Source: Methanogenium sp. S4BF
GTDB taxonomy: Archaea > Halobacteriota > Methanomicrobia > Methanomicrobiales > Methanomicrobiaceae
Assembly: GCF_029633965.1 (NCBI RefSeq)
Contig: NZ_CP091277.1
Location: forward strand, 763,940-803,939
DNA length: 40,000 nt
Direction of reading: 5' to 3'
Part shown: positions 1,485 to 17,425 of the stretch, in pieces
Position numbering within the stretch: position 1 is the stretch's first letter
Layout: each line of letters begins with the position of its first letter
The notes under the pieces: model-generated
What the model saw: only the letters and a program-made list of their open reading frames with translations
Database searches by the model: none
What the model was told of the DNA's origin: nothing
Program-made: the position numbers and the translations under genes

Positions 1485-1628
1485 AGCCAATATGGTCAGA
1501 TCCTTCAAATTTGTTTGCCGGATGTTTAGTAAATAAAAATGTAAGACTCTTGGATAATCAAAACCAGAGTCATGTGTTCTTTTGAATAGAGTAATAGTCA
1601 ATATTTAATTAACCGCATGTCTTGACGG

Positions 1629-1820
1629 TTAGACGTATCTACTGACAATCCCGATAACACCAAGTCCTCCAAAGATAAGCCCAATACCAATTCCACCCCA
1701 AATTGCGAGTTGTCCTGCTGCGGCGTTAACGTTGGTGGCACATAATAAAATTCCAGCTATGATAAGGACGGTTACAATTCCCGTTCCTCCCATACCAAGT
1801 CCAAAAATACTTTGAGTCAT
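1629..1820 (-). CDS. Small glycine-zipper membrane protein (2 predicted TM helices)
   Basis: The minus-strand sequence reads gggaggtgaacATG, a strong Shine-Dalgarno-like GGAGGTG 3 nt before the ATG at 1820. The listed ORF starts 6 nt earlier at a GTG. The product is almost entirely G/I/L/A/V with repeated GxxxG (GLGMGGTGIV, GGIGIGLIFGGLGVIGIV). Confidence 0.5.
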   Translation of the reverse strand: MTQSIFGLGMGGTGIVTVLIIAGILLCATNVNAAAGQLAIWGGIGIGLIFGGLGVIGIVSRYV

Positions 1821-2058
1821 GTTCACCTCCCGTTCAATTTTTTACGTGTTTTTTCCTGGAACCTGAAACATCAATAAAAGTTTTATTATAGCATCATTAA
1901 CATCTTTAGCATTGTAAGAATATGGCTGGAATTGAAAGGACTATTCACATTATCCCACTTGGTCATGAAATTGATCGTGCGGTAATCACATTTGATGATA
2001 CGACAGTTGATCAGGTTTACATCCTTACCGGGCTCAAAGAACGAATTCCCGAATTGAT

Positions 2059-2718
2059 TTGAGCAAAAAACAACTCTATTACGCTAAAAAAGTAAGAGAA
2101 AAATTACAGGAAAAAGGCATATCTGTTACATGTATTCATGTGAACCTCTTCGATTTACGTGAAGTAATGAAAACAATTTCAAAAATAATCGTAGAAGAAA
2201 AAGCGAAAAATAACCGAATTTTTGTAAACATGTCAGCTGCAGGGAGGCTAACATCAGTGGCAGCAACACTTGTTGGGATGGCTCATGATGTTCAGGTGTA
2301 TTACGTCCATGCTGATGAATATCCTGATGATGAAAAAATCAGAGAAGTTCACGGTTTAAGCATTTGTTCTTCTCAGGAAATTACTCAATTATCAAATTTT
2401 AAAATTGTAATGCCTGACTCTGAAGGTTTAGAAATACTTCTTTTTCTCACGCAAAGAGAGACCGCCAGAATGAGCGATATTTTGGAAATGATGCATGATA
2501 AAAATATTGAAGGTTTCGAGGAGGATTTTAAAATGATTGAACAGTTTAAGAAAAAAAGAAGTGTCCAGAGCAGGCAATTAATGAAACTGGATAAAACGAT
2601 TATTGCTCGGTTAGAAAAAAATGGATTTGTTTTTCGAACCAAAAAGGGGAGAGCTACGTATGTTTCAATAACCGAATCAGGAATTTATGCAGCACATATC
2701 AGTGGGATGATGGAATAA
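2059..2718 (+). CDS. Csa3/CARF-like Rossmann domain plus C-terminal wHTH regulator, apparently missing its first beta-strand by frameshift
   Basis: NMSAAGR fits the CARF-type [DN]-x-[ST]-x3-[RK] loop. The C-terminus (LEILLFLTQRETARMSDILEMM ... IIARLEKNGFVFRTKKGRATYVSITESG) reads as a winged helix. The expected N-terminal strand (MAGIERTIHIIPLGHEIDRAVITF..VDQVYILTG) is encoded at 1922-2062 in a different frame. The listed start is a TTG. Confidence 0.5.
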   Translation: MSKKQLYYAKKVREKLQEKGISVTCIHVNLFDLREVMKTISKIIVEEKAKNNRIFVNMSAAGRLTSVAATLVGMAHDVQVYYVHADEYPDDEKIREVHGLSICSSQEITQLSNFKIVMPDSEGLEILLFLTQRETARMSDILEMMHDKNIEGFEEDFKMIEQFKKKRSVQSRQLMKLDKTIIARLEKNGFVFRTKKGRATYVSITESGIYAAHISGMME

Positions 2719-2809
2719 TTACTGTTATTAATAAACACAATATCATTTTTCAGAAGAATGCTTCGCTATGCGTTTAGTTCAACAGACACGATAAAAGTGA
2801 TTTTCAATA

Positions 2810-2838
2810 GTGGCATTTTTTGTAACTAACTATAACCC
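2810..2838. repeat. Diverged copy of the casposon right-end terminal inverted repeat (right terminus of an older, left-lying element)
   Basis: gtggcattttttgtaactaactataaccc matches 17158-17186 (gtggcgtttttcacaactaactataaccc) at 25/29 positions in direct orientation. The preceding aata is also shared. Confidence 0.75.
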
Positions 2839-2852
2839 TACCCAAAAATGCG
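2839..2852. repeat. Target-site duplication, left copy
   Basis: tacccaaaaatgcg versus gaaccaaaaatgcg at 17187-17200 (12/14 identical). It lies directly outside the left terminal inverted repeat. Confidence 0.7.
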
Positions 2853-2881
2853 GGGTTATAGTTAGTTGTGAAAAACGCCAC
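2853..2881. repeat. Casposon left terminal inverted repeat
   Basis: gggttatagttagttgtgaaaaacgccac is the exact reverse complement (29/29) of 17158-17186. Confidence 0.9.
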
Positions 2882-3069
2882 TTTTACTGAATTTGCAAAT
2901 TTATTTTTCATCTCATCTTTGTCTTGATATTTCCCATAAATAATATAATGAAATTAATTTATGGCATATAAGGACATCCAAGAAATTATACTACCCATCA
3001 TACTACTAACAATACTTATAATATTATATCATTATAAATATTTAATGTCTGAAACGATAATATATTAGT

Positions 3070-4023
3070 ATGTCAAACCACCCGAAGGTTTTCATTAGTC
3101 ATGCTAGTGAGGATAAAGAGAGATTTGTTGTAAAGTTTGCAGAAAGACTGCGTTATGATGGGATAGAAGCTTGGTTAGATAAATGGGAAATATTGCTGGG
3201 TGACAGTCTAGTCCAGAAAATATTTGATGAAGGTTTAGAGCAATCTGATATCATTGCAATAGTAATATCAAAATATAGTATAACTAAAAAATGGGTTAAA
3301 GAAGAGCTTGATTTAGCAGTATATAGAAAAATTGAGGGTAAATGCAGAATAATTCCAATCATTATTGATGATTGCATTGTACCAGAATCAATCAAGCACA
3401 CACTACATGTGAAAATTCAAAATCTCAACAACTATGATGCTGAATACAATGAAATTCGTTCCACAATATTTGGTGAAACAAAAAAGCCTCCACTAGGTGA
3501 ACTTCCACAATATCTAACTGCCGTTCAGATGCACATTGACAAGTTTACACATACTGACAACTACATCGCGGGCATTATTTGTGAAAAGGCATTAGAAGAT
3601 GATTATCCATTTTTTGTAACTCCCACTCAAATATTGCCAATTGTTAGTGGAAATGGCATAACAGAGGATGAATTTTATGATACTATTGAAATAATGGATG
3701 GACGGGGGTATATTGAAGCTGAACAATGTTATGGTGGAGAGATTCCAGCAATTAAAATATCAACATTATTACTTGAAAAGTATTGCAGACAATGCATTGA
3801 TGATTATGACAATAAAGTGGTATCTGTGATTTCAGCCATCGTCAATGAAAATAAGTTGGAAAATTCTGAAATTGCTGCTGAATCTGGAATCAAGCAATCA
3901 ATTGTATCACACATTCTAATCTATCTGGATAATATTGGAAAAATTAAAACCACAACAGCACATGAAGGAGTAGTACTAGTCCACCCCAATAATATGGCAG
4001 AACTGAAGCGATTACTGCGATAG
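3070..4023 (+). CDS. TIR-domain protein with an uncharacterised C-terminal (wHTH-like) domain
   Basis: The N-terminus KVFISHASEDKERFVVKFAERLRYDGIEAWLDKWEILLGDSLVQKIFDEGLEQSDIIAIVISKYSITKKWVKEELDLA follows the prokaryotic TIR pattern: FISH-x-x-x-D, W-D with G-D-S-L, a vvlS strand, and W-x-x-E-L with the candidate catalytic Glu. The C-terminal ~180 aa end in a helix-turn-helix-like stretch (SEIAAESGIKQSIVSHILIYLDNIGKIK). The gene is visibly AT-rich. Confidence 0.8.
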   Translation: MSNHPKVFISHASEDKERFVVKFAERLRYDGIEAWLDKWEILLGDSLVQKIFDEGLEQSDIIAIVISKYSITKKWVKEELDLAVYRKIEGKCRIIPIIIDDCIVPESIKHTLHVKIQNLNNYDAEYNEIRSTIFGETKKPPLGELPQYLTAVQMHIDKFTHTDNYIAGIICEKALEDDYPFFVTPTQILPIVSGNGITEDEFYDTIEIMDGRGYIEAEQCYGGEIPAIKISTLLLEKYCRQCIDDYDNKVVSVISAIVNENKLENSEIAAESGIKQSIVSHILIYLDNIGKIKTTTAHEGVVLVHPNNMAELKRLLR

Positions 4024-4162
4024 AATGAAAATATAATCTATTTTCTGAGGAAGATTAAAAATAATCCTCATGATTACTCTAAGTTGTACTCATCTGGAAT
4101 GACATATTAAATAATTACTTTCACACCACGCGGATAAATATTAAAATATATTATTCTGATCC

Positions 4163-4447
4163 ATGGTTATGCATAAATTATTTAACATCTTCTTTGAAGA
4201 TCTACGAGTAACAATTTGTTTACTCATTGTTCTAGCTGCTCTTGCAGCATTTTTTGGCGCAATCGAACCAATTACAGAAAAATATGTTCAGGATGAAAAT
4301 TCAAAAGAAAACATCGAAAATATTGAATCAATTTCAATAAACGGATTCTCTCTTCTTCTTACTATCAGTGGAATTGGAACTGTTTTGGCTGTGATAGCTT
4401 GGTTTGCGGGTTTATTTGATGGAATCATAAGTATGATAAAAATATAG
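4163..4447 (+). CDS. Small two-TM membrane protein, hypothetical
   Basis: This 94-aa ORF has two hydrophobic helices (VTICLLIVLAALAAFFGAI and FSLLLTISGIGTVLAVIAWFAGLF) separated by an acidic loop. It is AT-rich like the upstream TIR gene. No clear ribosome-binding site is visible. Confidence 0.35.
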   Translation: MVMHKLFNIFFEDLRVTICLLIVLAALAAFFGAIEPITEKYVQDENSKENIENIESISINGFSLLLTISGIGTVLAVIAWFAGLFDGIISMIKI

Positions 4448-4451
4448 AAAT

Positions 4452-5963
4452 TCAACTCTTTTTCAACAAATCCCGCAACTCATCAAGATTAACCAATATC
4501 TGCTTCTCAATACCCTCAATTGTCTCAATGATCACTTCAGGAGGGTCATACTCAATCTCTTCATATTCAATCTCCTTATATCGCGAGATCGAGAGGTCAT
4601 AATTATTCTCCTTCACTTCATCATACGGCACATAGAAGCACTTGCCCTTCCGGTCTTCAGGCACCTCATCCCTCCGGCTCCTAAAGCGCTCGATGATATC
4701 AGGGATGTCACCCTTCCCGTCAATGAGCGTCCGTTTGTCATCCAGTGAAAATCCGTCTGCCTCCATATCATAGAACCAGACTTTCTCCGTTGTCCCACCC
4801 TTCGCAAAGATGAGCACAGCGGTGGAGACCCCTGCATACGGCCTGAATACACCGGACGGCATGGAGACAATACCTTCGACCTGGTTCTCCTCAAGGAGCA
4901 TCTGGCGGAGTTTCTTATGCGCCCGTGAACTCCCGAACATGACACCATCCGGCACGATTACGGCACACCGCCCTCCAATCGTCAGGAGATGAATCATCCG
5001 CTCCACAAACAGAAGCTCCGTCTTTGTCGTGGAAAGGCTCAGGCTGTCGTTAATATCACTCTTGTCGATACTCCCCTTGAACGGTGGATTGGCAAGCACC
5101 ACTGAATACCGCTCCTCCTCATTGTAGAGCTTGGAGAGTGTATCCTTCTGCTCAATCTTCGGCGCCTTGATCCCGTGGAGCATCATGTTCATGAGCGAGA
5201 TGCGGGCCATCGTGGAATCAAAATCATAGCCATAGAACGTATCGCTCCAGAGCTTCTCCCAGTGCCGCTGTTCAGTGATATTGTCCCCGATGAGATTGTG
5301 GTATTCGCCCTCACTGTCCACCTCCAGCATATCGGGACTGGTGTATTTCCGGATAATGTACTCATAGGCGTTGATCAGGAACCCTGCTGTTCCACAGGCA
5401 GGGTCACAGATACGGTCATTGACATCCGGTTCGACCAGTTCCACCATCATCCGGATGATATGCCGGGGCGTCCGGAACTGTCCGTTTTTCCCTGCGGTGG
5501 AGAGTTGGGAGAGAAGATACTCGTAGATGTCACCCTGCGTATCACGATTCTGTGCAGTGATGTCCATCTCATCGATAATGGCAACAGCCTCCTGCAGGAG
5601 GGACGGCTTTGGGATGATGAAGACCGCGTCCCGCATCTGGCGTGCGAAGAGTGTTTTCTCCCCGTTGTGCAGGTTCTTGATGAACGGGAAGACAACATCA
5701 CGGACATGCACGAGCATCTGTTCAGCAGGATAGTGCTTCCAGTTTGACCACCGGCACTCATCCTGTCCCTCAAAGATCGAGGTATAGGCGATGTCCCGTG
5801 CCCGTGCACGGTTCTGCTCGACCACATCCATGTCCTCCAGCCGCTTCATGAAGATGAGATAGGACATCTGTTCAATGGACTGGAGGGGGTTGGACATACC
5901 ACCGCTCCAGAAGCGATCCCAGAGGGTGTCTATCTTTGATTTAAGTTCGGGGGCGAGTTTCAT
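4452..5963 (-). CDS. hsdM: Type I R-M N6-adenine DNA methyltransferase subunit HsdM
   Basis: SAM-binding motif ICDPACGTAGFL, catalytic motif LANPPFKGS, and a typical HsdM N-terminal domain (KIDTLWDRFWSGGMSNPLQSIEQMSYLIFMKRLED). The start overlaps the hsdS stop by 4 nt. Confidence 0.92.
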   Translation of the reverse strand: MKLAPELKSKIDTLWDRFWSGGMSNPLQSIEQMSYLIFMKRLEDMDVVEQNRARARDIAYTSIFEGQDECRWSNWKHYPAEQMLVHVRDVVFPFIKNLHNGEKTLFARQMRDAVFIIPKPSLLQEAVAIIDEMDITAQNRDTQGDIYEYLLSQLSTAGKNGQFRTPRHIIRMMVELVEPDVNDRICDPACGTAGFLINAYEYIIRKYTSPDMLEVDSEGEYHNLIGDNITEQRHWEKLWSDTFYGYDFDSTMARISLMNMMLHGIKAPKIEQKDTLSKLYNEEERYSVVLANPPFKGSIDKSDINDSLSLSTTKTELLFVERMIHLLTIGGRCAVIVPDGVMFGSSRAHKKLRQMLLEENQVEGIVSMPSGVFRPYAGVSTAVLIFAKGGTTEKVWFYDMEADGFSLDDKRTLIDGKGDIPDIIERFRSRRDEVPEDRKGKCFYVPYDEVKENNYDLSISRYKEIEYEEIEYDPPEVIIETIEGIEKQILVNLDELRDLLKKS

Positions 5964-7189
5964 GGTATTAGTTCTCCGGTGAATGCTTTTGATTGAAGTA
6001 ATGCAAATAAATCAGCAATTTCCTGATTAGCTTTAGATTGATCTGTAAAGGCAGAATCAATGTGTTTTAGAGATTGAATGAATTTTTCTTGAAATAATAC
6101 CGGTGGCAACACAACAACACATTTCCTCAAGTCTTTAGTGTTAAAGCTAGCTTGATTCACTGCAGGTTTTGTGATCCTCTTTATTTGGTTCATAAAAAAT
6201 GTGGTTTTAAATTGTGCCACCAAAAAAAATGGGTTTACAAGCTTTCTATTGACATTAATTCGAAATATATTATGACCGACAATAGCTGGAGAATATTCTC
6301 CTTGATATACGGCACTTTTGCCTATTCGGCTAAGACTATTCACGTAATTTAACAGGATATCATCTTTCTTTAAAACATATCGAGTGATGTCTTCAGGCAC
6401 ATCAATGTACTTCAATTTTGTCGCTTTAATGGACATTCCATCATGAATTTCTCCTGAAGTAATGTTGACAGGCCCTTTTCCTTCTGCATTCAATCTTCGT
6501 GATGGGCCAGCTTCAACTTTCTGAATTATACTACCCAGAGTTACTTTTTCCCATCCCTTAGGATTCGTCACCGGGTCACCGAACATCTCCAGAAACACGC
6601 TCTGCACCAGTTCCTGCGTGAGCGCATCCGCATCCGCCCGCAGGCGCTGCGTTGCCTCTGCTTTTTCAAGAATGGCGACAATCTTGCGCTGGGTTTCCAG
6701 ATTTGGAATTGATAATTGTATTTTTCCCAATTCTTTTCTGGGAATACGTTTGCGTGTCGTTCCCCTAGAACGCCGAATAATTTCTTTTCTACATTCTGGA
6801 GAATTAATTGCATATTTCAGCCAGTTCGGATCTATCAATGGATTATCCGGACGCAGAATACAAACATCAACAGCTGTAATACATTTCTTCTCATTTCCAG
6901 GGAAGATGCATGCACGTCCTATTGGATCAGGCATACGAGAAATTAAAATATCCCCCTTTTTTAGGAAAGTGCAATTCAATTCTATCGCTTTTTCTAATGT
7001 TAAAAATTTGTTTGAATTAAATTCAAAATATCCATCTTTAATATCTGCAAGCTGTATCAATCGGACTTGACCAGATGGATCCTGATCCTTACTTTCAACC
7101 CAATCCCCATCCGTGAAAATTCCTTCACTTGATGTCAAGTTAACTATAGAATATTGAATACTTTCTTTATTATTCTCAATTATATTCAA
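5960..7189 (-). CDS. hsdS: Type I R-M specificity subunit HsdS
   Basis: Two target-recognition domains are separated by a central conserved helix (ETQRKIVAILEKAEATQRLRADADALTQELVQSVFLEMFGDP). The C-terminal conserved helix ends ...LLQSKAFTGELIP. It sits between hsdR and hsdM. Confidence 0.88.
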   Translation of the reverse strand: MNIIENNKESIQYSIVNLTSSEGIFTDGDWVESKDQDPSGQVRLIQLADIKDGYFEFNSNKFLTLEKAIELNCTFLKKGDILISRMPDPIGRACIFPGNEKKCITAVDVCILRPDNPLIDPNWLKYAINSPECRKEIIRRSRGTTRKRIPRKELGKIQLSIPNLETQRKIVAILEKAEATQRLRADADALTQELVQSVFLEMFGDPVTNPKGWEKVTLGSIIQKVEAGPSRRLNAEGKGPVNITSGEIHDGMSIKATKLKYIDVPEDITRYVLKKDDILLNYVNSLSRIGKSAVYQGEYSPAIVGHNIFRINVNRKLVNPFFLVAQFKTTFFMNQIKRITKPAVNQASFNTKDLRKCVVVLPPVLFQEKFIQSLKHIDSAFTDQSKANQEIADLFALLQSKAFTGELIP

Positions 7190-7192
7190 TCA

Positions 7193-10030
7193 TCACGCCT
7201 CCGCAACAAACAGTTCCCGTTCCAGTCCCTGACATATGCCAATGAACGCCCTGAGATCGCCCTCGTCAAACATCGGCAGCGGTGCGTTGATGCCAAAATT
7301 GGTGAACGGGGCATCCCAGAGATCTCTCATTTCTATATGCTTTTTGCGCATAAATACCGTCTGAATCGTCCTGATGAAGTGGAGCTGGTCGGCGGTGTAG
7401 TGCTTGTTGTTCTCAGCAATGAAGGTCTGGAACGCCTCCTCGATCTGCTCTTTCGGGTCGGGTGCCTTGTAGAGTCCCAACACAGATTTGATGAAATCAA
7501 CAAGCGTCCCCCGTGGCTGCCGGTAGCCTTTCTGCAGGACTTCCCCGGTGATGTCCACCCCTGCCTCGGTGAGGGTCTCCTCAAGACGGGAGAGGTCGGT
7601 CTCCGTGATTGTCTCATCGTTTGCGATCTTTTGGATGACCGGGTCTTCGGTTGCCATCTCGCGGATTCGTTCTTCCACCTTCTTGACAAACGCGGTGACA
7701 TAGGGAGGGGTGTCCTCGTTCACCTCCCAGATGCTGCGTTCCTCAATCACATCGCCCATGTCGATGACAATCGTCTGGGGCGTCTCCTTGGACATATACT
7801 TCATCAGCGGTGCGATATCAGAAACAAGCATCCGGGTATCCTCGAACGAGACACCCTTCCAGAACGATCGGGAGAGCACGTCATCCAGTTGCTCTTCCTT
7901 CTGCCGGACTTTTTCGAGGTTGCGGGGGAGGAGGTCAACCATCTCAGCGATGGCCTTCTTCTGCCGCTCTATCTCCTTGTCATTCCCTTCTAAGACAGCA
8001 AGCGCAAGCCGTTCGGTCTTGATCGTAAAGGACGCCTCCTTGAGATTGACACCCGTCTGGTAGCGCATCAGGGGCATCATATGGGATGTCAGGTATTCAA
8101 CCGGGTCAACGGCAATATTGTCCCAGAGTTTGGGAGAGAGTGCTTTTGCAATCTCCTGTTCGTGTTCCCGCACACTCACGGAGTCGGAAGGCAGGGCACG
8201 GATATCGTCCTCAATTTTTGCCCGGATCACCGCAGCACGTTCCCCATCTCCCGCCTGTATCAACCGGTCAAGCTGCTTTACCCGCAGGAGAAAGATCCGA
8301 CTGGTAATAGCTTCGATGGGTTCGTTCTTCACCCCTTCCGGGTTCATGTTCCAGTAATCAAAGTTGTTCCAGAAATCGAAGACCTTGAAATACTCCTTCT
8401 TCCCGTTCGGGAGCCAGTCACGGTGTTTGCAGGCCGCATCCGCCCTTGTCCCCCTCCCTAGCATCTGCCAGAACTTGATCCTGGAGAAGACCGGTTTTGC
8501 AAAGACAAGGTTGCAGACCTCCGGTACGTCAATGCCGGTGTCCAGCATGTCGACCGATATGGCAACACGGGGGAATGACTCCTTCTCAAAGTCATGGATG
8601 AGTGCCTGTGCACGGGAATCCTCAGAGACAATAATGCGTGCGAGGTTCCCCTTGTATTCAGGATAGAGGTCATTGAACGCCTCATGAAGCCGGTTCGCAT
8701 GCTTCTTTGATATCGCAAAGAAGATCGTCTTCGCAGGAAGTGTGCCAGTCTCATCCATCTGGCAGTTATCCATGAACTCCCGGACAATTGCTTCAGACGT
8801 GCCCTTCACCGCGATCTTCTTCTCCAGAACAGAGCCATCGAAATCGATCTCGTCCGGGTCGATGCCCTGCTCGATGAGGCGGTTACGTTCGGTCTCGCTC
8901 AGGTCTGAGGGCTTCACCCCTTCAATCTGGAAGTGCGTCTGCGCACCCATGATATTCTTGCGGAAGTCACAGAGGATACCGTCTCGCACTGCCTCCTCAT
9001 ATGAGTAGAGAGCGGTTGGTGCCTGATCATCACACTGGAAGAACCGGAAGGTGTCACGGTCAACAAGGTCTGCCGGTGTTGCAGTCAGCCCGATCTGGAT
9101 GGCATCCAGATACGTGAAGACATCCCGCCATTTATTGTATATACTGCGGTGTGCCTCATCTGAGATGATGAGGTCAAACTCACCAGGCGAGATAAGATAC
9201 TGCCCGTTCTCATCTTTTTGGGTATAGATCTCCTGAAACGTCTGGATGGTGGAGACATAGAGCCGCTTCTCCTTGTTGAAGTTGCCGTGCAGGATTTTGT
9301 CCTTCGCCTCCTGCGGGAAGAACTCCTGAAACCCTTTGTTCCATGCCTGATCCCGCAGTGCCTTTCTGTCTGCGAGGAAGAGCACCCGGTGAGCACGGTT
9401 CTCCTGCATCAGGGCATCGATAATTGCCATCGCGACACGAGTCTTGCCCGTGCCCGTTGCCATCACAATCAACGCCTTCCGGTGTCCCTTCTGGATGTGC
9501 TCCACTATCCGTTTGACATTCTCGATACTCTTCGGGCGGTCAACAATATCGGTATTGACTCCTCTTGGTGTGTCCGGCTGAACCTGCTCGTTCTGGAAGC
9601 GAAGCCGCTCAAGGTCTTTGCGGGCGTAGAACCCGGTCACCAGACGGGGAGGATACCGCTGCCGATCCCAGAACCAGATCTCATAACCGTTTGTGAGAAA
9701 AATGAAGACATCCCGGCCCGTTTGCCTTTTGATGTCGTCTGCATATTTTTCTGCCTGCTTTTGACCGATATTGGGGTCTTTTGATGTCCGCTTTGCCTCG
9801 ATGATGGCAAGGGGATTATTCAGACTGTCCAGCAGGAGATAGTCAGCATATTTACTCTCACGATCATTCTTGAGTGTTTCATCAACAGTTTTGTAGGAAC
9901 AGGCATTGAAATCAGACTGCTTTGTATCAACCTCAGGGATGACATGCGAACGACTGTTCACATCCCAGCCCTGCTCCCTGAGTTGGACATCAATCTTTTG
10001 TTTCCTCGTCTGATGTTCATTGAGATCCAT
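7193..10030 (-). CDS. hsdR: Type I R-M restriction endonuclease/translocase subunit HsdR
   Basis: N-terminal PD-(D/E)xK-like nuclease motif (ADYLLLD...PLAIIEAKR), SF2 helicase Walker A (VMATGTGKTRVA) and DEAH box (LIISDEAHRS). The protein is 945 aa. Confidence 0.92.
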   Translation of the reverse strand: MDLNEHQTRKQKIDVQLREQGWDVNSRSHVIPEVDTKQSDFNACSYKTVDETLKNDRESKYADYLLLDSLNNPLAIIEAKRTSKDPNIGQKQAEKYADDIKRQTGRDVFIFLTNGYEIWFWDRQRYPPRLVTGFYARKDLERLRFQNEQVQPDTPRGVNTDIVDRPKSIENVKRIVEHIQKGHRKALIVMATGTGKTRVAMAIIDALMQENRAHRVLFLADRKALRDQAWNKGFQEFFPQEAKDKILHGNFNKEKRLYVSTIQTFQEIYTQKDENGQYLISPGEFDLIISDEAHRSIYNKWRDVFTYLDAIQIGLTATPADLVDRDTFRFFQCDDQAPTALYSYEEAVRDGILCDFRKNIMGAQTHFQIEGVKPSDLSETERNRLIEQGIDPDEIDFDGSVLEKKIAVKGTSEAIVREFMDNCQMDETGTLPAKTIFFAISKKHANRLHEAFNDLYPEYKGNLARIIVSEDSRAQALIHDFEKESFPRVAISVDMLDTGIDVPEVCNLVFAKPVFSRIKFWQMLGRGTRADAACKHRDWLPNGKKEYFKVFDFWNNFDYWNMNPEGVKNEPIEAITSRIFLLRVKQLDRLIQAGDGERAAVIRAKIEDDIRALPSDSVSVREHEQEIAKALSPKLWDNIAVDPVEYLTSHMMPLMRYQTGVNLKEASFTIKTERLALAVLEGNDKEIERQKKAIAEMVDLLPRNLEKVRQKEEQLDDVLSRSFWKGVSFEDTRMLVSDIAPLMKYMSKETPQTIVIDMGDVIEERSIWEVNEDTPPYVTAFVKKVEERIREMATEDPVIQKIANDETITETDLSRLEETLTEAGVDITGEVLQKGYRQPRGTLVDFIKSVLGLYKAPDPKEQIEEAFQTFIAENNKHYTADQLHFIRTIQTVFMRKKHIEMRDLWDAPFTNFGINAPLPMFDEGDLRAFIGICQGLERELFVAEA

Positions 10031-10123
10031 GCGTTACTCCATTGTGGATAGATATTAAATGAAAAGTTTATTCAAGTCAATAATTGACTCGTTTGGCACC
10101 ATACATCAATGTTATGGAATCTG

Positions 10124-10146
10124 TTTGATATTGCTCAATAATATCA
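10124..10146. promoter_or_regulatory. Perfect 8-bp stem / 7-nt loop inverted repeat between cas1 and hsdR
   Basis: ttgatatt-gctcaat-aatatcaa lies in the AT-rich 186-bp spacer between the cas1 stop (10217) and the hsdR start (10030). It could be a terminator or an operator, and the function is not established. Confidence 0.25.
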
Positions 10147-10216
10147 ACAATACTTCAACGTCAACACCACAAATTGGTTGAATTACCTCAACAGAAAAGA
10201 AAAATGAGAAAGAAAC

Positions 10217-11440
10217 TCAGACAGATAACGTCTCTTTTAGTTGATCCCATACCATCAACCGTTCAACAACGTGTTGATTGAGGGAAAACGGCTTCTCCGA
10301 CTCTGCGTTCTTTTTCATATAATGCAATGAACCTTTTGAGAAACCCAGTTTCTTCCAGTCAGCATACGAAATGCTGAGTATCTTCCTGCGTATCTCATCC
10401 GTATCAACCCTGTCAACCTGATACTCCGGCTTCATGAAACTCACCGACTGTTTCTTCCCGGTCAGATACTGCGCCAGCTCCCTGCCCTTCAGCACCATCA
10501 CATAACTCCACATCAGCTCTTTGCCCTGATACTCAACCGTCTTGTTGAACCATGCGTTGACCTCTTCTGTCATCTTGCGTGCACCCGTGGGCCGTAATCT
10601 CAGTGCATAGCTCTCCGTCCTGATAAAATCCTTCGCGGTCATCGCATCGCGCTCAACGAGGTTGATAACTGCCAGGTCAACAAGAAACCGAAACAACTCC
10701 TGCATATCATAAGCCAGACTGTTCTTGCCGGATTGCATCTCATGAAGGAATCCCACATGTGCATCAAGACCAACACTGTTGATGACCCTGAGACACTCTG
10801 CTTCGAGAAGGGCATACCCATAATTCAGCATGCAGTTGACCTGATCTCCCGCTCCTGAGGGCCGTGTGTGGTAACGTCCCGTCCGGCTCTCAAACTCATA
10901 CTTCTCAGGGATGACTTTGGCAAACTGTTTCCAGTAGTGCTGGGCAACGGCACCCTCAACTCCCATCACTTCCCGGATCAACTTTGCGTCTTTCAGACTC
11001 TTTGGTTCATAGGGAATCACAGGGTCAACACCGGGATACCGCTGGTGCAGATAGTCAAGGACGATCTGTGTGCGGTCAAACTTGGATTCGATGAACTTCT
11101 TCGCCAGTTTCAGTCGCAGTTTCTTATCGTCAAATGCATGGTATTGTACAAACTTCGTCTTCACCTGCACACTCTCCGGAGGGAGCATTGTGGTGAGCAT
11201 CGTTCCATCCCAATCAAGAATGGACACCTGCACATTGTGTTTGACAAGCCACCGGATGGCTTCAAGACTGAGGTTGCCGCTCCTCCCGTAGATCACAATG
11301 GAATCGATATCAATGCGCTGTGGATGGAAGACATACTTCGCAGGCTCCTCTTCGGTAGAGAACCGTCCGTCCGTGATATGAAGGTGTGCACGATCCACTT
11401 TCATGCTGATGCCATGCCCGTTGAGAAGCAGGAACTTCAT
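10217..11440 (-). CDS. cas1: Cas1-family casposase (Cas1 integrase core plus C-terminal HTH)
   Basis: Cas1 catalytic signature residues are present: Glu in REVMGVEGAVAQHYW, His in LDAHVGFLHE, and an acidic pair in SLAYDMQELFRFLVD. It also has NYGYALLE. The C-terminal extension (ILSISYADWKKLGFSKGSLHYMKK) reads as an HTH, as described for casposases. Confidence 0.9.
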   Translation of the reverse strand: MKFLLLNGHGISMKVDRAHLHITDGRFSTEEEPAKYVFHPQRIDIDSIVIYGRSGNLSLEAIRWLVKHNVQVSILDWDGTMLTTMLPPESVQVKTKFVQYHAFDDKKLRLKLAKKFIESKFDRTQIVLDYLHQRYPGVDPVIPYEPKSLKDAKLIREVMGVEGAVAQHYWKQFAKVIPEKYEFESRTGRYHTRPSGAGDQVNCMLNYGYALLEAECLRVINSVGLDAHVGFLHEMQSGKNSLAYDMQELFRFLVDLAVINLVERDAMTAKDFIRTESYALRLRPTGARKMTEEVNAWFNKTVEYQGKELMWSYVMVLKGRELAQYLTGKKQSVSFMKPEYQVDRVDTDEIRRKILSISYADWKKLGFSKGSLHYMKKNAESEKPFSLNQHVVERLMVWDQLKETLSV

Positions 11441-12351
11441 GACCTCATCCCCTTGAACAACCCGTTCAGTTCAGGTGCACCCCTGATGCCTTCCATCGGG
11501 TCGGTTGCATCAAGCGGGTCACTCTCATGCTCTGTTGCATACTTGCGTATCTCTGCGAGAGTATCAGCCTCTTTCACCCGGTCTCCCTTTCGCAGTTCAC
11601 GTTCCAGATTGAATAGTTCCGTGCGGTGTGATTCTATGATAAAGGCGGTGAATGGTGTCAGATAGTCGTTCTTCAGAGATTCAAAGTCATCTGCGTTTCG
11701 GGCATCCTCAATGAGCTGAGATACCACCCTTTCGTCCCTCAGCTTTCCGAGCATGCGGATATGGTGATTACGCATCTGTGCATTTTGCGGCACACTAATG
11801 TCAAACTGTGTAAGGCTTGCACGCAGAAGAACCCTGAACCGGTCTTTGTCAAAAGGCGTGATTTCCCGGATTATGAAATAGTCATAGAGAATTTCGGTAG
11901 CTGCTTTGGCAATATCAGCGTCTTTGGTCAGCAGGTTGACAATCGCGTCTAACTGTTTCGGTGTGAGGATGTATTTGTCACGGTAAAGCCGGATCTCATC
12001 GAGAACCATCCTGATATCCGCTGTGTCACCTTTGGAAAGCAGGTCAAATAATGTGTCAAGATGCTTTTTCCGTTCTGCAAAGGATTTCAGCGTGAGATAA
12101 ACCGCTCTATTGTTGGATTCTTTGATTCCATAGGCTATAAGGTCTGGATTTTGAATTTTTGCAATCATGCCTGCTTTGTTCAAATATTCAATTGCCCTGT
12201 ACAGGCTTGGTTCACTAAAACCTCTTTCACCTTTTTGATTCTCCACGATCTCTCTCACAAGTTTGGAGGTTCTTGTTGGGGGATGAGTGGAGAGATACTG
12301 GAGTATTGCACTATCACTTTTAACATCTGACATTTGACTACCAACATTCAC
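11437..12351 (-). CDS. wHTH DNA-binding protein with an all-helical C-terminal domain, translationally coupled to cas1
   Basis: Its stop overlaps the cas1 start (ATGA at 11437-11440). The N-terminus ILQYLSTHPPTRTSKLVREIVENQKGERGFSEPSLYRAIEYLNKAGMI has a winged-helix pattern. The rest is predicted helical with no recognisable catalytic motif. Confidence 0.6.
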   Translation of the reverse strand: MNVGSQMSDVKSDSAILQYLSTHPPTRTSKLVREIVENQKGERGFSEPSLYRAIEYLNKAGMIAKIQNPDLIAYGIKESNNRAVYLTLKSFAERKKHLDTLFDLLSKGDTADIRMVLDEIRLYRDKYILTPKQLDAIVNLLTKDADIAKAATEILYDYFIIREITPFDKDRFRVLLRASLTQFDISVPQNAQMRNHHIRMLGKLRDERVVSQLIEDARNADDFESLKNDYLTPFTAFIIESHRTELFNLERELRKGDRVKEADTLAEIRKYATEHESDPLDATDPMEGIRGAPELNGLFKGMRS

Positions 12352-12377
12352 TATTATCTTTATATGATATAATATGT

Positions 12378-12409
12378 GCTATCATATTAGCTATCATTAC
12401 TAACGATAG
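12378..12409. promoter_or_regulatory. Candidate operator in the divergent casposon control region
   Basis: gctatcat occurs twice (12378-12385 and 12390-12397). An imperfect 19-bp palindrome ctatcattactaacgatag (12391-12409, 16/19 self-complementary) lies between the divergent wHTH-cas1 and RHH-polB gene sets, in AT-rich TATA-like sequence. Confidence 0.35.
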
Positions 12410-12432
12410 TGTCTGCTCTCCTTCATGAATCT

Positions 12433-12582
12433 ATGAAACCAAAAGAAAAGACCAACAAACTGGTCATTTCTGTTTCGCCGTATCTGAAGGCGAAGATCGT
12501 TGAGACCGCAGACCGCTATGGATGCTCCCAGGCTGAAGTCCTCAGGATGGCGTTCATCCGGATGCTGGAGGCAGACAGATGA
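12433..12582 (+). CDS. Ribbon-helix-helix (CopG/MetJ-like) DNA-binding protein, 49 aa, below the ORF-track cutoff
   Basis: Manual translation gives MKPKEKTNKLVISVSPYLKAKIVETADRYGCSQAEVLRMAFIRMLEADR. It has a beta-strand (KLVISVSPYL) followed by two helices, the classic RHH layout. Its stop overlaps the next ATG (ATGA at 12579-12582). Confidence 0.6.
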   Translation: MKPKEKTNKLVISVSPYLKAKIVETADRYGCSQAEVLRMAFIRMLEADR

Positions 12583-13220
12583 GCCGCAAACGGTTCTCTC
12601 AGGAGTATCGCACCTATGGCGAGTGGCTCAACGCACAACCACGGGAATCACGGTATGCAAAACGTATCATCCGGTTCCACGAACGGTTTCCCGGCAAGAG
12701 CCTGAAAGAGCTGAAGGGTCTCCGCGTCCGGGACTATGACCTGAGTAATAACCCGTGGAATGATCTCTCCCCTGAAGAGAAGCGTGAACGTCTTCTCTCC
12801 CTTGAACTGCTCCGTGCCATGCGGAACGATGAACACTTCTCCCCAAAGCTCAGGGAGCTGGGTCTTTCACGCGACACCGCTGTCAAACACCTTGGCCTGA
12901 ATCTCCGGAAAGAACGTGGATACTGGCACATCAACAAAACAGACCGCATAGAAGTTGAGATGATGATCTATGACCGTGAGAAGGGTCATATTTCGATTCC
13001 TGTTGCAAACTCCGTAGACCGGACACGGATTGCACGATACCATGCCTATGTCCGGTTCGCAATTGAGGATAACAACCCTGCACTCCTGAAGCGGTTTGAG
13101 CAGATGGTTGTTATTGATGCAACCGGTATCCGCTATCGGTTTGAGACCGATGTGGAACGCCTGTATGAGATCAAGGATGCAGAAGAAGAACCGGAATTTT
13201 TCGAGATCTATCAGTCATAG
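12579..13220 (+). CDS. Hypothetical casposon protein (213 aa)
   Basis: A long ORF coupled to the RHH gene upstream and followed 5 nt later by the HNH gene. Its composition resembles the casposon core. I recognise no motif. Confidence 0.6.
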   Translation: MSRKRFSQEYRTYGEWLNAQPRESRYAKRIIRFHERFPGKSLKELKGLRVRDYDLSNNPWNDLSPEEKRERLLSLELLRAMRNDEHFSPKLRELGLSRDTAVKHLGLNLRKERGYWHINKTDRIEVEMMIYDREKGHISIPVANSVDRTRIARYHAYVRFAIEDNNPALLKRFEQMVVIDATGIRYRFETDVERLYEIKDAEEEPEFFEIYQS

Positions 13221-13225
13221 GAGCG

Positions 13226-13600
13226 ATGCATATGGACAAAAATACCTACCGAAAAACAACAGAGAAGATGAAACGGTCAGGGCAGACCGGACACTGCTGC
13301 GTAATGTGTGGAGAAGATAATCCAGCCCTCCTTGAGATGCACCATGTCGATGGAAGAGCGGCATCTGAGAAGACTGTTCCCCTCTGCAAGAACTGTCACG
13401 CAAAGGTCACAATGGAGCAGAACCGTTTCCCTCCGAAAGCCCGTGCTGCCAATGGCCTTCAGGCAGAACAGATTGCATTCTGGCTCCTGAGCCTTGGTGC
13501 ACTTCTGAAATATGTTGGTCAGTCACTCATCGAATTTGCCCATGAGGTTCAGCAGAATGCCGGCGTTAGCAGTGCGTGGATACACTCGAAAACTCAATAA
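13226..13600 (+). CDS. HNH endonuclease
   Basis: CCVMCGEDNPALLEMHHVDGRAASEKTVPLCKNCHAKV gives CxxC ... HH ... CxxCH, the zinc-finger-braced HNH motif. Confidence 0.85.
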   Translation: MHMDKNTYRKTTEKMKRSGQTGHCCVMCGEDNPALLEMHHVDGRAASEKTVPLCKNCHAKVTMEQNRFPPKARAANGLQAEQIAFWLLSLGALLKYVGQSLIEFAHEVQQNAGVSSAWIHSKTQ

Positions 13601-16241
13601 AAAGGGGAAGGGGAAAGGGAAAGCATCCTCATATCCCGACCACCCGCTCAGGCATTCCCGTGTCTTGGTCTTTGATACAGAGACCACTATTGACTGGTTT
13701 CAGAATCTGAAGATCGGATATTTCCAGATCTATCAGGACGACATCTTACAGCATCACGGCCTGATCAACAATAATGCACATCTTGACGAACGTGAACGAA
13801 AGACCCTGAAACGGTATGCAGAGCGTAATTCAATTTCTCTATACTCGCTGAACGAGTTCGTTGATGATGTGTTCTACCGGGAAGTCTTTGACCTGAAAAC
13901 CCTCTGTATTGGGTTCAACCTCCCGTTTGATCTCAGTCGGATTGCTCACAAGGCAGCTCATTCACGCGGACGGAACAAAGGAGGGTTCACCCTCACCCTT
14001 TCGGAAGACCGCATGCAGCCTCCCATTATCGTAAAACAGCTGGGAAGCGCTTACAGCATGAAGTTCAGCTCGACCAAGAAAAACATGAAAAAAGACTTTT
14101 TTGGCGGGTATTTTCTGGACGTGCAGACACTGGCCGAGGTAATGCTTCAGGCAAAACGTGTCTCCCTTCAGCGGGCGGGTGAGATGCTCAACATCAGCCA
14201 TGAGAAATATACCGGAATCTCTCATGGAAGGGTGACGGAGAAATATATCGAATACAACATCCGGGATGTCGAAGCGACCTATGAAGTCTATCGCAGGCTT
14301 GTGCAGGAACTGGATCTCTTCCAGATTGATATCCCTCTCACGAAGGTGTTCAGCTCAGCATCCATCGGAAAGTATGCCCTCAAACAGATGAGTGTCACAC
14401 CATTTCATCAGCAGAACCCTGACTTTCCGGATGCTATTCTCGGTAATATCATGTCAGCGTATTACGGGGGAAGAACGGAGTGCAGGATACGTAAACAGCC
14501 GACCAAGGTGTCGGTGCTTGACTTTACAAGCATGTATCCGACCATCACCATGATTCTGGGTCTCTGGCCTTATCTCATTGCAGATCGTATCGAATCAGTG
14601 GATGCGACTGAAGAGATACAAGCGCTCCTCTCTTCTCTCAATCTTGCTGATTTGCAGAACCCGGATATCTGGAAGGACTTCTGTGTTCTTGTCAAGCTGC
14701 GACCGGATGATGATATCCTTCCGGCGAGGATGGACTATAAAGGGGATGACTCTCCCTATGTGGTCGGACTCAATTACCTCTCCAGTGAAAAGGAGATGTG
14801 GTATGCTCTGCCGGATGTCATCGCCTCGGTGCTACTCACCGGGAAAGTGCCTGATATTCTTGAGGCTGTGCGGTTTGTGCCGGTCGGACAACAGACCAGC
14901 CTTCAGAAGACACAGATCCATAGTGTTGATATTGATCCTCGCAGGGACAATCTGTTTCAGGTGCTGGTTGAAAAGCGGCAGGAGATTAAACAAGACCTCA
15001 AGACCATCTCCAAAGATGATCCAGAACAGCTTCACCTCTCCAGCCAGGCACAGGCCATCAAGATTCTTGTCAATGCGATGAGTTATGGCATCTTCATTGA
15101 ACTCAATCCCGAAGATAAGAAAAGCGCTTTAGAGGTGAATGGGGTTTACTCCTTCACGACTGAAGAGAACCGGCATGAGAAAGAAGGGAAGTATTTCCAC
15201 CCTCTTATGGCGGTAATGATTACCGCAGGGTCACGTCTCTTTCTCGCAATGGCTGAGGCGAAGGTGCTGGAGCTGGGTGGGCAGCATGCCTACATGGATA
15301 CGGATAGTATCTTTGTCCCGCCCGACTTTGCACAGCCTATCCTTGACTTCTTCCAGCCACTGAACCCGTATAGCATTGATATCCCTCTGCTCAAGCCTGA
15401 AAAGGAGGATATGTGGTTCTATGGCATCTCCTCCAAGCGGTATGCTCTCTATTATCTTGACGGTCAGGAGATCCGGTTCATGGAAGGAGAGCGGTCGTAT
15501 AAGCTGCATGGTCTGGGACATCTGGCGAATCCGTTCCCGAACAACGTGAAGGACTGGCAGGCAGAAGTCTGGCAGGACATCCTGCGTATGCACTATGGGT
15601 TTGTTTCATCGATGGAGATCTATGAGAAGTATTCAAAATTTTATGCGGTTTCCCGTCTTTCGGTCTCAACCTCTCATGTATGGAAGAGGTTTGATAGTTT
15701 CAATGAAGGGAAAGCATGGGATGAACAGATTAAGCCGTTCAATTTCTATCTTGCAGGCTTTAAAACGGAGGATGAGAATGGTGTGCCTGTTAAACCGCTA
15801 TGTCCCTTCTCCAAAGACCCGCAGACAATTGTTCACAGGGAGTTCATCGATTATCAGACAGGGGAGAACAAGCAGGGTTCGCACTACTTCAGAGCACTCT
15901 GCCAGACCATTCTTGATTATGCCAATCACCCGGAAAACAAGTTCGATGGGGGTGTTGGTCTGCTTGAGAGGAGACATATTGTGGCTGATGATGTGACTCA
16001 CATCGGAAAGGAAGCTAACAATATTGATGATCAGGCACTGGAAGTTCGGAAGGCTCAGAGGTTTGTCGATAAGGCTGATGTCATGAAGACGATTCTTTCT
16101 ATGTCTCAGAAGATAGCTGAAGAATGTGGGGTGGATAGGAAGACGTTCCAAAGGATGAAGCAGAGGATTCAGGAGAAAGGCGATTTAAATTTGAAGACTC
16201 CAGCTGTTAAAAGGTTGTACTCAAAAAGGTTAATGAATTAA
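13512..16241 (+). CDS. polB: Family B DNA polymerase (casposon PolB, protein-primed-like clade)
   Basis: ExoI VLVFDTETT and ExoII-like YNIRDVEATYEVY. Motif A is VSVLDFTSMYPTI, motif B is AIKILVNAMSYGIFIE and motif C is HAYMDTDSIFV. The start is uncertain: in-frame candidates are ATG 13512, 13542 and 13557 and GTG 13572, all overlapping the HNH gene end. Confidence 0.92.
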   Translation: MLVSHSSNLPMRFSRMPALAVRGYTRKLNKKGKGKGKASSYPDHPLRHSRVLVFDTETTIDWFQNLKIGYFQIYQDDILQHHGLINNNAHLDERERKTLKRYAERNSISLYSLNEFVDDVFYREVFDLKTLCIGFNLPFDLSRIAHKAAHSRGRNKGGFTLTLSEDRMQPPIIVKQLGSAYSMKFSSTKKNMKKDFFGGYFLDVQTLAEVMLQAKRVSLQRAGEMLNISHEKYTGISHGRVTEKYIEYNIRDVEATYEVYRRLVQELDLFQIDIPLTKVFSSASIGKYALKQMSVTPFHQQNPDFPDAILGNIMSAYYGGRTECRIRKQPTKVSVLDFTSMYPTITMILGLWPYLIADRIESVDATEEIQALLSSLNLADLQNPDIWKDFCVLVKLRPDDDILPARMDYKGDDSPYVVGLNYLSSEKEMWYALPDVIASVLLTGKVPDILEAVRFVPVGQQTSLQKTQIHSVDIDPRRDNLFQVLVEKRQEIKQDLKTISKDDPEQLHLSSQAQAIKILVNAMSYGIFIELNPEDKKSALEVNGVYSFTTEENRHEKEGKYFHPLMAVMITAGSRLFLAMAEAKVLELGGQHAYMDTDSIFVPPDFAQPILDFFQPLNPYSIDIPLLKPEKEDMWFYGISSKRYALYYLDGQEIRFMEGERSYKLHGLGHLANPFPNNVKDWQAEVWQDILRMHYGFVSSMEIYEKYSKFYAVSRLSVSTSHVWKRFDSFNEGKAWDEQIKPFNFYLAGFKTEDENGVPVKPLCPFSKDPQTIVHREFIDYQTGENKQGSHYFRALCQTILDYANHPENKFDGGVGLLERRHIVADDVTHIGKEANNIDDQALEVRKAQRFVDKADVMKTILSMSQKIAEECGVDRKTFQRMKQRIQEKGDLNLKTPAVKRLYSKRLMN

Positions 16242-17017
16242 TTCCCTTCTTCTTTTGAATACGCACGTTCTCTTAGGACATTAATGATGTCTGGGTTCCA
16301 AGCTTCTTTATTTCCATGGAGAGATTTTCTTTCAATTATTGCCTGTGCACAACTCCGAAGTTCTTCAGCCCCTTGCGGCTTCCAATCATTTCTCAGTGCC
16401 CATGCTTTTAATGAATCTGGATCAAATAATTCTCCATTGTTTCTTAGAATTCTTAACAACTCAACTGTTTCTCGTTTATCTCTTGGATTTGATAGACCCG
16501 TTGACAAATTAACTCTCCTTGTAAGCGTTTTCATTGCTTCTTCGACAACAGGATTTTTAATCAAATCTTCGAGTTCACTGTGTTCTTCTCCAAGTATTAT
16601 TGGGTTCCATGTTTTCTTCCATTCACCTATTTCATCCATATACCACGGAACAACCACAGCCAGATCAAGATTTTTTACAGAATCTAAAATATCTAACATT
16701 TTCTTGTTTGGATAAACACAAAGAACGATTTCTGATGATGAATAAGAATTGAATGTTTTAATTGTTTCACATTTTAAGACTAAATTATCCGCAATTTTCA
16801 ATTTTTTACCTTTTGAGAGGTTTTTGCAAGGTTTTTCACCTAAAGCCGCGTCAATATCAGTTCCATTAAGCTGGTGTTTGGTTGGTATGAATAATGTAAC
16901 TTCTTTTAAACGTTCAGATTTTTCATTAATCTTAATAATCAGTATCAAAGCTTCGATAATTGACCCCATTTCTCCAAATTTTGGGGGGACGACATATCTT
17001 GAGATATCAGGTGTCAT
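16238..17017 (-). CDS. Hypothetical protein (259 aa), AT-rich cargo gene at the casposon right end
   Basis: An uninterrupted ORF convergent with polB, with overlapping stops. A consensus archaeal TATA box sits about 26 nt upstream of its ATG. Alternating strand/helix pattern in the N-terminal half (VTLFIPTK, IVLCVYPN, LAVVVPW) and a helical C-terminal half. No recognisable motif. Confidence 0.55.
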   Translation of the reverse strand: MTPDISRYVVPPKFGEMGSIIEALILIIKINEKSERLKEVTLFIPTKHQLNGTDIDAALGEKPCKNLSKGKKLKIADNLVLKCETIKTFNSYSSSEIVLCVYPNKKMLDILDSVKNLDLAVVVPWYMDEIGEWKKTWNPIILGEEHSELEDLIKNPVVEEAMKTLTRRVNLSTGLSNPRDKRETVELLRILRNNGELFDPDSLKAWALRNDWKPQGAEELRSCAQAIIERKSLHGNKEAWNPDIINVLRERAYSKEEGN

Positions 17018-17039
17018 AACAATGAATTATTCACTTAGC

Positions 17040-17047
17040 TATTTAAA
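17040..17047 (-). promoter_or_regulatory. TATA box for the 259-aa cargo gene
   Basis: The minus strand reads TTTAAATA, centred about 26 nt upstream of the ATG at 17017. This implies a leaderless or near-leaderless transcript. Confidence 0.4.
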
Positions 17048-17157
17048 TGAAAGTCAGATTATAATGCAGTCATGTTTTCAAAAAAAAGATTGTTTAGGTA
17101 AATTTAGATTGTCACATCCTAAATGGATGACTTTGAGTAAAAGGGTTGAACAAAATA

Positions 17158-17186
17158 GTGGCGTTTTTCACAACTAACTATAACCC
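17158..17186. repeat. Casposon right terminal inverted repeat
   Basis: gtggcgtttttcacaactaactataaccc is the exact reverse complement of 2853-2881. Confidence 0.9.
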
Positions 17187-17200
17187 GAACCAAAAATGCG
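17187..17200. repeat. Target-site duplication, right copy (overlaps the tRNA-Leu 3' end)
   Basis: gaaccaaaaatgcg matches 2839-2852 at 12/14. It covers the oligo-T tract downstream of the tRNA, the discriminator base and the last 3 acceptor-stem nucleotides. Confidence 0.7.
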
Positions 17201-17280
17201 AGGGGAGGGATTCGAACCCGCGAACTCCTACGAGACTGGGCCCTAAACCCAGCGCCTTTGACCGACTCGGCAACCCTCGC
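17197..17280 (-). tRNA. tRNA-Leu (anticodon UAG), class II with long variable arm
   Basis: The reverse complement reads GCGAGGGTTGCCGAGTCGGTCAAAGGCGCTGGGTTTAGGGCCCAGTCTCGTAGGAGTTCGCGGGTTCGAATCCCTCCCCTCGC plus discriminator A. It has a 7-bp acceptor stem and an anticodon stem CTGGG/CCCAG with loop TTTAGGG, giving anticodon TAG. It also has a long variable arm and a GTTCGAATC T-loop. CCA is not encoded, and a TTTTT tract follows. Confidence 0.9.
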
Positions 17281-17392
17281 TCACGCAATACAGAAATTGC
17301 AGTCCAGTATTAGCGCTAAAAAGGTATAATTCCTTGTATCTTCTGGAAATAATCAGGGGAAAGAACCGGAAATGAAACGGGAAAGAACCGTG

Positions 17393-17400
17393 AAAAAAAA
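17393..17400 (-). terminator. Oligo-T tract downstream of the methyltransferase gene
   Basis: A run of 8 T on the minus strand starts 26 nt after the stop at 17426. Archaeal terminators are typically oligo-T tracts. Confidence 0.35.
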
Positions 17401-17425
17401 GAGAAATACCGTAATCCAATATCCT

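Follow-up and report, generated by a model that had tools for sequence, protein, structure and literature searches.

The window analysed here was a 40-kb stretch of DNA (40,000 nucleotides, nt) from Methanogenium sp. S4BF, and it contained a 14.3-kb element at positions 2853–17186 that is very probably a structurally intact family-2 casposon, inserted at the 3' end of a tRNA-Leu gene. The left terminal inverted repeat (GGGTTATAGTTAGTTGTGAAAAACGCCAC, positions 2853–2881, forward strand) and the right terminal inverted repeat (positions 17158–17186, reverse strand) were exact reverse complements of each other. The 29/29 match, which had been claimed in a first-pass annotation of this stretch, was reproduced by self-comparison, and the repeat was extendable to 33 nt with one mismatch (97%). 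The other inverted repeats of the window reached at most 30 nt with 73–89% identity, and the chance expectation for a perfect 29-mer inverted repeat in 40 kb was approximately 3e-9. Directly outside the ends, two 14-bp direct repeats, tacccaaaaatgcg (positions 2839–2852) on the left and gaaccaaaaatgcg (positions 17187–17200) on the right, agreed at 12 of 14 positions, again as annotated; the probability of such a match at a fixed position was between 3e-6 and 3e-5. An intact tRNA-Leu(UAG) was located at positions 17197–17280 of the reverse strand by ARAGORN and Rfam (RF00005, 48.9 bits), and the right copy of the duplication reached its 3' end as described earlier, overlapping the final 4 nt. 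On the tRNA strand the duplication read CGCATTTTTGGTTC (in shortened form CGCATTTTTGG...), and its first four bases, CGCA, were the last four of the tRNA.

The casposase gene (positions 10217–11440, reverse strand) encoded a 407-residue Cas1 (Pfam Cas_Cas1, E = 2e-65) with a C-terminal helix-turn-helix (HTH) domain. Among all PDB chains, the best match was the casposase of Methanosarcina mazei (PDB code 6OPM), with 598 bits and E = 7e-179 over residues 1–401 and an identity of about 70%, whereas the next match, a Cas1 of the CRISPR type, scored 145 bits. All CRISPR subtype-specific NCBIfam Cas1 models were far under their cut-offs, and the score comparison thus favoured the casposase over CRISPR Cas1. 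The Glu/His/acidic signature and the C-terminal HTH noted before were both present. The catalytic residues were kept as E162, H233, and E248, where the active site of the M. mazei casposase has E162, H232, and E247 (PMC6977970). The Pfam Cas1 domain stopped at residue 295, and residues 296–401 aligned with the casposase including its HTH domain, a domain confined to family-2 casposases (PMC4046053) and required for integration (PMC6977970). The best 120 database homologues of Cas1 were 321–425 residues long, nearly all about 400, and every named one was from a methanogen; the closest ones belonged to methanogen genera and species with reported casposons, Methanococcoides burtonii (PMC4779613) among them. 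The ratio of nonsynonymous to synonymous substitutions (dN/dS) of cas1 was 0.08 against Methanogenium cariaci. As judged from these sequence comparisons, Cas1 is a casposase homologue and not a CRISPR-type Cas1. No CRISPR-like array was found in the 40-kb window, in agreement with the first-pass annotation; its statement that cas2 was missing held in part, with no other cas genes among the 27 open reading frames (ORFs) scanned in the 40 kb, a search that was not exhaustive for a cas2 in small ORFs. A CRISPR-Cas adaptation module, with Cas1 and Cas2 beside an array, was rejected, as no cas2 was seen in the scanned ORFs and no array was present.

Four further conserved genes accompanied cas1. 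The gene upstream of cas1 and overlapping it (orf304, 304 residues, positions 11437–12351, reverse strand) had homologues at the same position in 51 fetched loci and a dN/dS of 0.15. The divergently transcribed orf213 (213 residues, positions 12579–13220, forward strand) had homologues in 62 fetched loci, 97.7% amino acid identity to its M. cariaci counterpart, and a dN/dS of 0.05. Two conserved HTH proteins complete the published five-gene core of family-2 casposons (PMC4046053), and orf304 and orf213 were matched by position to the HTH/HEAT protein and the second HTH protein of that core, respectively. A predicted HNH endonuclease (124 residues, positions 13226–13600, forward strand) contained a CxxC...HH...CxxCH motif; it gave weak HNH-type matches, below the Pfam cut-off, and had a same-position homologue in 48 loci. 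The family-B DNA polymerase (PolB, positions 13512–16241, forward strand; Pfam DNA_pol_B_2, DNA_pol_B, and HTH_23) ended in an HTH domain, and its C-terminus resembled the HTH of Cas1. Its ORF ran from position 13512 with a likely start near 13575, giving 888 residues as in M. cariaci. The Exo I (DTE), A (DFTSMYP), B (KILVNAMSYG), and C (DTDS) motifs of PolB were intact, and its dN/dS was 0.16 against M. cariaci; the exonuclease and A/B/C motifs that had been ascribed to the polymerase were therefore found, as was the HNH nuclease noted with it. PolB and HNH were linked to Cas1 in 48–56 loci, and all five core genes were full length.

A closely related casposon was located in M. cariaci (locus L082, GCA_054654835.1) at the same tRNA-Leu(UAG), and both of its 29-bp ends were identical to those of S4BF. 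The two cores aligned over 6.1 kb with 92.9% nucleotide identity, and the five core proteins were 91–98% identical; the sequences from cas1 to the far end and from PolB to the near end were unrelated. Between these two elements, the core genes gave dN/dS values of 0.05–0.21 and synonymous divergences (dS) of 0.19–0.29, and three adjacent host genes gave dS values of 0.74–1.12, which placed the core dS 3–5 times lower. Because of its low dN/dS, the core is evidently under purifying selection and should be functional. Because the core dS lies well below the host dS, the elements appear to be younger than the divergence of their hosts, and the S4BF element would have arrived after the host split. 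The perfect termini had earlier been taken as a sign of recent activity. This did not hold, because the M. cariaci element, with a core that had diverged by 7%, kept the very same ends; their identity points instead to likely selection on the casposase binding site.

An empty site was present in an uncultured member of the Methanomicrobiaceae (L004). The genes that flank the M. cariaci element in its host were collinear in this locus, and directly after the tRNA came the sequence that in L082 lies beyond the casposon, so that for an element with these ends the site is empty. The proposed empty-site check thus succeeded for the M. cariaci element, and for the S4BF copy itself the evidence was indirect, from dS. 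In the search with the host methyltransferase, synteny was weak; when the 24 closest loci were scanned for tRNAs, a tRNA-Leu(UAG) lay downstream of this gene in L004 alone, and casposon genes were found in 0 of the 80 loci.

The cargo downstream of cas1 occupied 7.3 kb, with a patchy G+C content of 33–54%. A complete Type I restriction-modification (R-M) system was encoded on one strand by three adjacent, full-length genes: HsdM (positions 4452–5963, reverse strand; Pfam N6_Mtase, 4.5e-64, and HsdM_N; PADLOC MTase_I, 1.8e-176), HsdS with two target-recognition domains (positions 5960–7189, reverse strand; two stretches of Pfam Methylase_S; PADLOC Specificity_I, 6e-78), and HsdR (positions 7193–10030, reverse strand; Pfam HSDR_N, ResIII, Helicase_C, and EcoEI_R_C; PADLOC REase_I, 1.2e-137). 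A TIR-domain protein of 317 residues (positions 3070–4023, forward strand; Pfam TIR_2, E = 9e-26) had an uncharacterised C-terminal half. Its PADLOC matches were the candidate family PDC-S66 (7e-26, the best) and bSEFIR (5e-21). A Thoeris system was rejected, with Pfam ThsB_TIR at 19.5 under a cut-off of 21.2 and no ThsA, SIR2, or Macro gene inside the element. The protein fits no defined defence system and is classed only as a TIR-domain protein. A small hydrophobic ORF of 94 residues (orf94, positions 4163–4447, forward strand) belonged to no significant family. Between PolB and the right end, a second variable slot carried a 259-residue ORF (orf259, positions 16238–17017, reverse strand), for which no homologue was found in related casposons. 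Pfam, NCBIfam, and PADLOC returned nothing for orf304, orf213, orf259, orf94, and the neighbouring orf190 described below. No transposase or integrase gene was found within the cargo by Pfam. Antiviral protection of the host and stabilisation of the element are the probable roles of the Type I R-M system and the TIR protein. Among the fetched loci, a Methanospirillum locus (L017, positions 1389–8342) without casposon genes had the closest relatives of HsdM (76% amino acid identity) and HsdR (59%), which gives a hint of the source pool of the cargo.

The same five-gene order was observed in 17 further metagenomic casposon loci, 15 with both ends and two unbounded. Every relative with both ends bore cargo in the same slot, downstream of cas1, and between the core and each end there is apparently one variable slot. 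The cargo downstream of cas1 consisted of Avs2 (1529 residues, 1662 bits) and a CARF protein in M. cariaci (L082), Dsr1 in L087 and L097 (1386 bits, scored on L087), PD-Lambda-4 in L081, a STAND NTPase in L093–L096, Type IIG R-M in L105 and L114, Type III R-M in L117, a C5 methyltransferase in L147, and another Type I HsdR in L168. In eight other elements the scanned cargo ORFs had no PADLOC match; three of these eight, L134, L146, and L149, had no cargo ORF scanned. Casposases that were 86–96% identical were accompanied by the Type I R-M and TIR genes of S4BF, Avs2 and CARF, Dsr1, PD-Lambda-4, or the STAND NTPase, and the more distant members carried Type IIG, Type III, or Type II R-M. The sample was small, and the counts carry no comparison with the genome background.

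These loci raise the proposal, which we hold to be evenly balanced, that the region from cas1 to the near end may be an exchangeable slot for antiviral defence systems in the Methanomicrobiales branch of family 2, that casposons may thereby spread innate defence among methanogens, and that tandem or inverted insertions at one tRNA may reshuffle the cargo. Near-identical cores with different complete defence systems in one slot suggest that Cas1-driven transposons move immunity genes between methanogens. If this is true, the ancestor of the CRISPR adaptation enzyme was habitually beside defence genes, and the cargo pattern bears on how a casposon could have come among such genes before CRISPR recruited Cas1. 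Sir2-like, methyltransferase, restriction endonuclease, OLD, and HEPN genes have been mentioned in casposons earlier (PMC4046053, PMC6563490), and according to a 2024 survey, defence genes made up a smaller share in 48 published casposons than in pipolins (PMC11551731). In the literature searched, with subscription journals outside it, no casposon cargo of Avs, Dsr, or Type I R-M was described and, as far as could be found, neither was a defence slot of this defined and exchangeable kind among close casposon relatives.

Several related loci showed features of their own. In L117 (positions 63–14309), a complete-looking casposon had tRNA 3' ends in inverted orientation on its two sides and unrelated 14-mers (4/14), which suggests that casposons at two tRNA genes underwent an inversion or recombined with each other. 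In L093–L096 (e.g. L093, positions 10001–11008), Cas1 was 335 residues long and did not have the C-terminal HTH needed by the M. mazei enzyme; despite this, the ends matched at 28/30 and the duplication at 13/14, and an 1800-residue STAND NTPase was carried. In L092 (positions 86–5040), an IS21-type IstA/IstB pair lay beside a shortened PolB of 550 residues, and the Cas1 of this casposon was in the same 90%-identity protein cluster as that of S4BF. L105 had a perfect 79-bp terminal inverted repeat (positions 2805–2883 and 17641–17719), of which about 40 nt recurred twice inside the element.

The end of a second casposon, element A, was located at positions 1–2838 (forward strand) and was cut by the window edge. 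It was recognized by similarity to the M. cariaci casposon, and positions 1603–2838 were 90% identical to the cas1-distal end of that element (L082, positions 16751–17989). Its terminal inverted repeat (positions 2810–2838) matched the end of the S4BF element at 25/29. Element A contained an HsdS whose frame was open to base 1 of the window (positions 1–915) and which was only 27% identical to the HsdS of the S4BF element, orf190 (positions 912–1484), and a CARF/HFX_2341 gene (positions 1922–2718) with a 1-nt frameshift near 2031. Element A was inverted relative to the S4BF element, and the cargo ends of the two faced each other across the shared 14 bp. Element A appears to be partly decayed. 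Next to the duplication, the M. mazei casposase requires roughly 30 bp of tRNA (PMC6977970); because of this requirement, and because the S4BF element is the tRNA-proximal one, it was probably inserted after element A.

The integration mechanism of the casposase tetramer and its target are known for M. mazei (PMC6977970). By homology to that element, a tetramer of the S4BF Cas1-HTH casposase would bind the GGGTTATAG... ends together with the 3' region of tRNA-Leu and would join the two CCC-3' ends 14 bp apart, starting from the CGCA that closes the tRNA. Gap repair would then duplicate the 14 bp and leave the tRNA intact. Copying of the element is presumably the task of its PolB, together with HNH and the two small conserved proteins. 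Both integration and excision by the M. mazei homologue are documented (PMC6977970, PMC10359463); in M. mazei, excision is rare and leaves one clean copy of the target (PMC10359463). By this analogy, we infer that the S4BF element may be catalytically active.

The casposase-like Cas1, PolB, HNH, the 29/29 ends, and the 14-bp CGCA duplication at tRNA-Leu were consistent with the family-2 casposon that had been proposed at first pass. Four points weigh against this interpretation. R192 of the M. mazei casposase corresponded to R193 in S4BF, and the R191 position was occupied by H; in the M. mazei enzyme, mutating this arginine pair together (R191A/R192A) nearly eliminated integration. The target duplication was imperfect, at 12/14, which speaks for an insertion that is not very recent or for remodelling of the junction. 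The empty site concerned the M. cariaci element, and gain of the S4BF copy as a unit is indicated indirectly, by the dS comparison. The folds of orf304 and orf213 rest on position, as neither Pfam nor NCBIfam detected an HTH or HEAT domain in either protein. Some of these points would also fit a casposon by descent that is now immobile, a fixed defence island kept for its R-M and TIR genes. The diverged duplication may be read in this way, since several relatives had 14/14 copies (7 of 18 other bounded copies with comparable junctions, all seven metagenomic, had perfect duplications overlapping a tRNA 3' end), as may the decaying adjacent copy, the replaced R191, and the very low casposition in M. 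mazei, with 1e-5 to 1e-9 excisions per genome (PMC10359463). The full-length core genes with their low dN/dS values, the two perfect ends identical to those of M. cariaci, and a core dS that implies movement after the host divergence argue in the opposite direction, and we consider immobility unlikely, though the most serious of the alternatives.

The mobile unit may also differ from positions 2853–17186, either as a composite of both casposons that uses their outermost ends, or with an R-M/TIR block that was gained after integration and was never mobile with the element. The two casposons were only 14 bp apart and their outer ends would make a valid pair, and the patchy G+C content of the cargo and its closest HsdM and HsdR relatives in the casposon-free Methanospirillum locus could reflect a late gain. 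On the other side, the cargo lay wholly within perfect ends and contained no transposase or integrase gene, and the same slot was occupied by cargo in every two-ended relative, of which several had 14/14 duplications, which indicates that cargo-bearing elements transpose as units; such a different unit therefore seems improbable. The public annotation of the gene as 'CRISPR-associated endonuclease Cas1' and a score above the cut-off of the generic TIGR00287 model would agree with an orphan CRISPR adaptation gene lying between the inverted repeats of another integrative element, for instance a provirus or plasmid that targets tRNA. Against the large difference between the casposase and CRISPR Cas1 scores, the failing subtype models, the linkage of PolB and HNH in related loci, and the finding of no array and, among the scanned ORFs, no cas2 or integrase, this explanation is hardly credible as far as sequence can tell. 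With a CRISPR-type Cas1, a Thoeris system, and also an island driven by an integrase rejected, the structurally intact family-2 casposon is retained as the preferred interpretation.

The right-hand 23 kb of the window was ordinary methanogen chromosome, with genes for a methyltransferase, an AI-2E transporter, Eha hydrogenase, formylmethanofuran dehydrogenase-like proteins, FttA, and transporters. A 22–23-nt unit, GGGAAAGAACCGGAAATGAAAC, was present in about 2.5 copies at positions 17345–17406, between tRNA-Leu and the methyltransferase gene. This methyltransferase gene was located between the AI-2E transporter gene and tRNA-Leu in S4BF (positions 17426–18178) and L004 (positions 10001–10750) and was absent from M. 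cariaci (L082, positions 2908–3033). For the pair S4BF and L004 its dS was 0.25, a low value beside the dS of host genes for S4BF and M. cariaci. A solo end-like sequence, GGGTAATAGTTATCTTGTAATTTT(T)GCAAC, followed the tRNA-Leu target in L004 (positions 11495–11530) and L082 (positions 18004–18033). An inverted partner of GGGTAATAGTT..., the sequence after the tRNA in both loci, was searched for and not found, and the sequence was treated as a solo end. Near it, a PolB fragment of 73% identity was located in L082 (positions 19527–19645). The solo end and the PolB fragment look like old casposon debris at tRNA-Leu.

The tRNA-Leu target, the 14-bp CGCA duplication, the five-gene core, a size of 6–16 kb, and tandem insertion have already been published for casposons (PMC4046053, PMC4779613), and no paper treating casposons and Methanogenium together was found in the literature searched. 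The type of the element is ordinary, and its modestly new part is the cargo slot downstream of cas1. Novelty had been claimed at first for both the cargo and the tandem context. The claim is upheld for the cargo, as a modestly new slot pattern, but not for the tandem, since tandem insertion at tRNA-Leu was published for Methanosarcina sp. 2.H.T.1A.3 (PMC4779613). Compared with the tandem casposons of Methanosarcina sp. 2.H.T.1A.3 and 2.H.A.1B.4 (PMC4779613), the S4BF neighbour was inverted, with the cargo ends facing, and the defect seen in it was the frameshift of the CARF gene.

The M. cariaci casposon, which to our knowledge is not described in the literature searched, shared the tRNA-Leu(UAG) site, the 29-bp ends, and the five core genes with the S4BF element. 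It carried Avs2 and CARF where S4BF had Type I R-M and TIR, and the PolB-side slot also differed. Pipolins, which have been described as reservoirs of defence systems (PMC11551731), are likewise self-replicating PolB elements with a conserved core and exchangeable defence cargo, but unlike the S4BF casposon they rely on a tyrosine recombinase, have a primer-independent PolB, and occur in bacteria.

The S4BF element was well matched to the family-2 casposons of M. mazei at tRNA-Leu (e.g. MetMaz1FA1A3-C2; PDB code 6OPM), with a Cas1-HTH protein about 70% identical that had the same catalytic triad. The tRNA-Leu 3' end, the 14-bp CGCA duplication overlapping the last 4 nt of the tRNA (PMC6977970, PMC4779613), the ends finishing in ...CCC-3', and a core of PolB, HNH, and two small proteins were also alike. 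The differences were the host, which belongs to the Methanomicrobiales (Methanogenium, with a flank of about 53% G+C) and not to the Methanosarcinales, the end sequence, the H at the R191 position, and the larger size of 14.3 kb, which was due to the 7.3 kb of cargo downstream of cas1. A well-preserved casposon is present in a cultured Methanogenium, and its target logic, shared with the one casposon that has been studied in vivo, could make it a second system for experiments.

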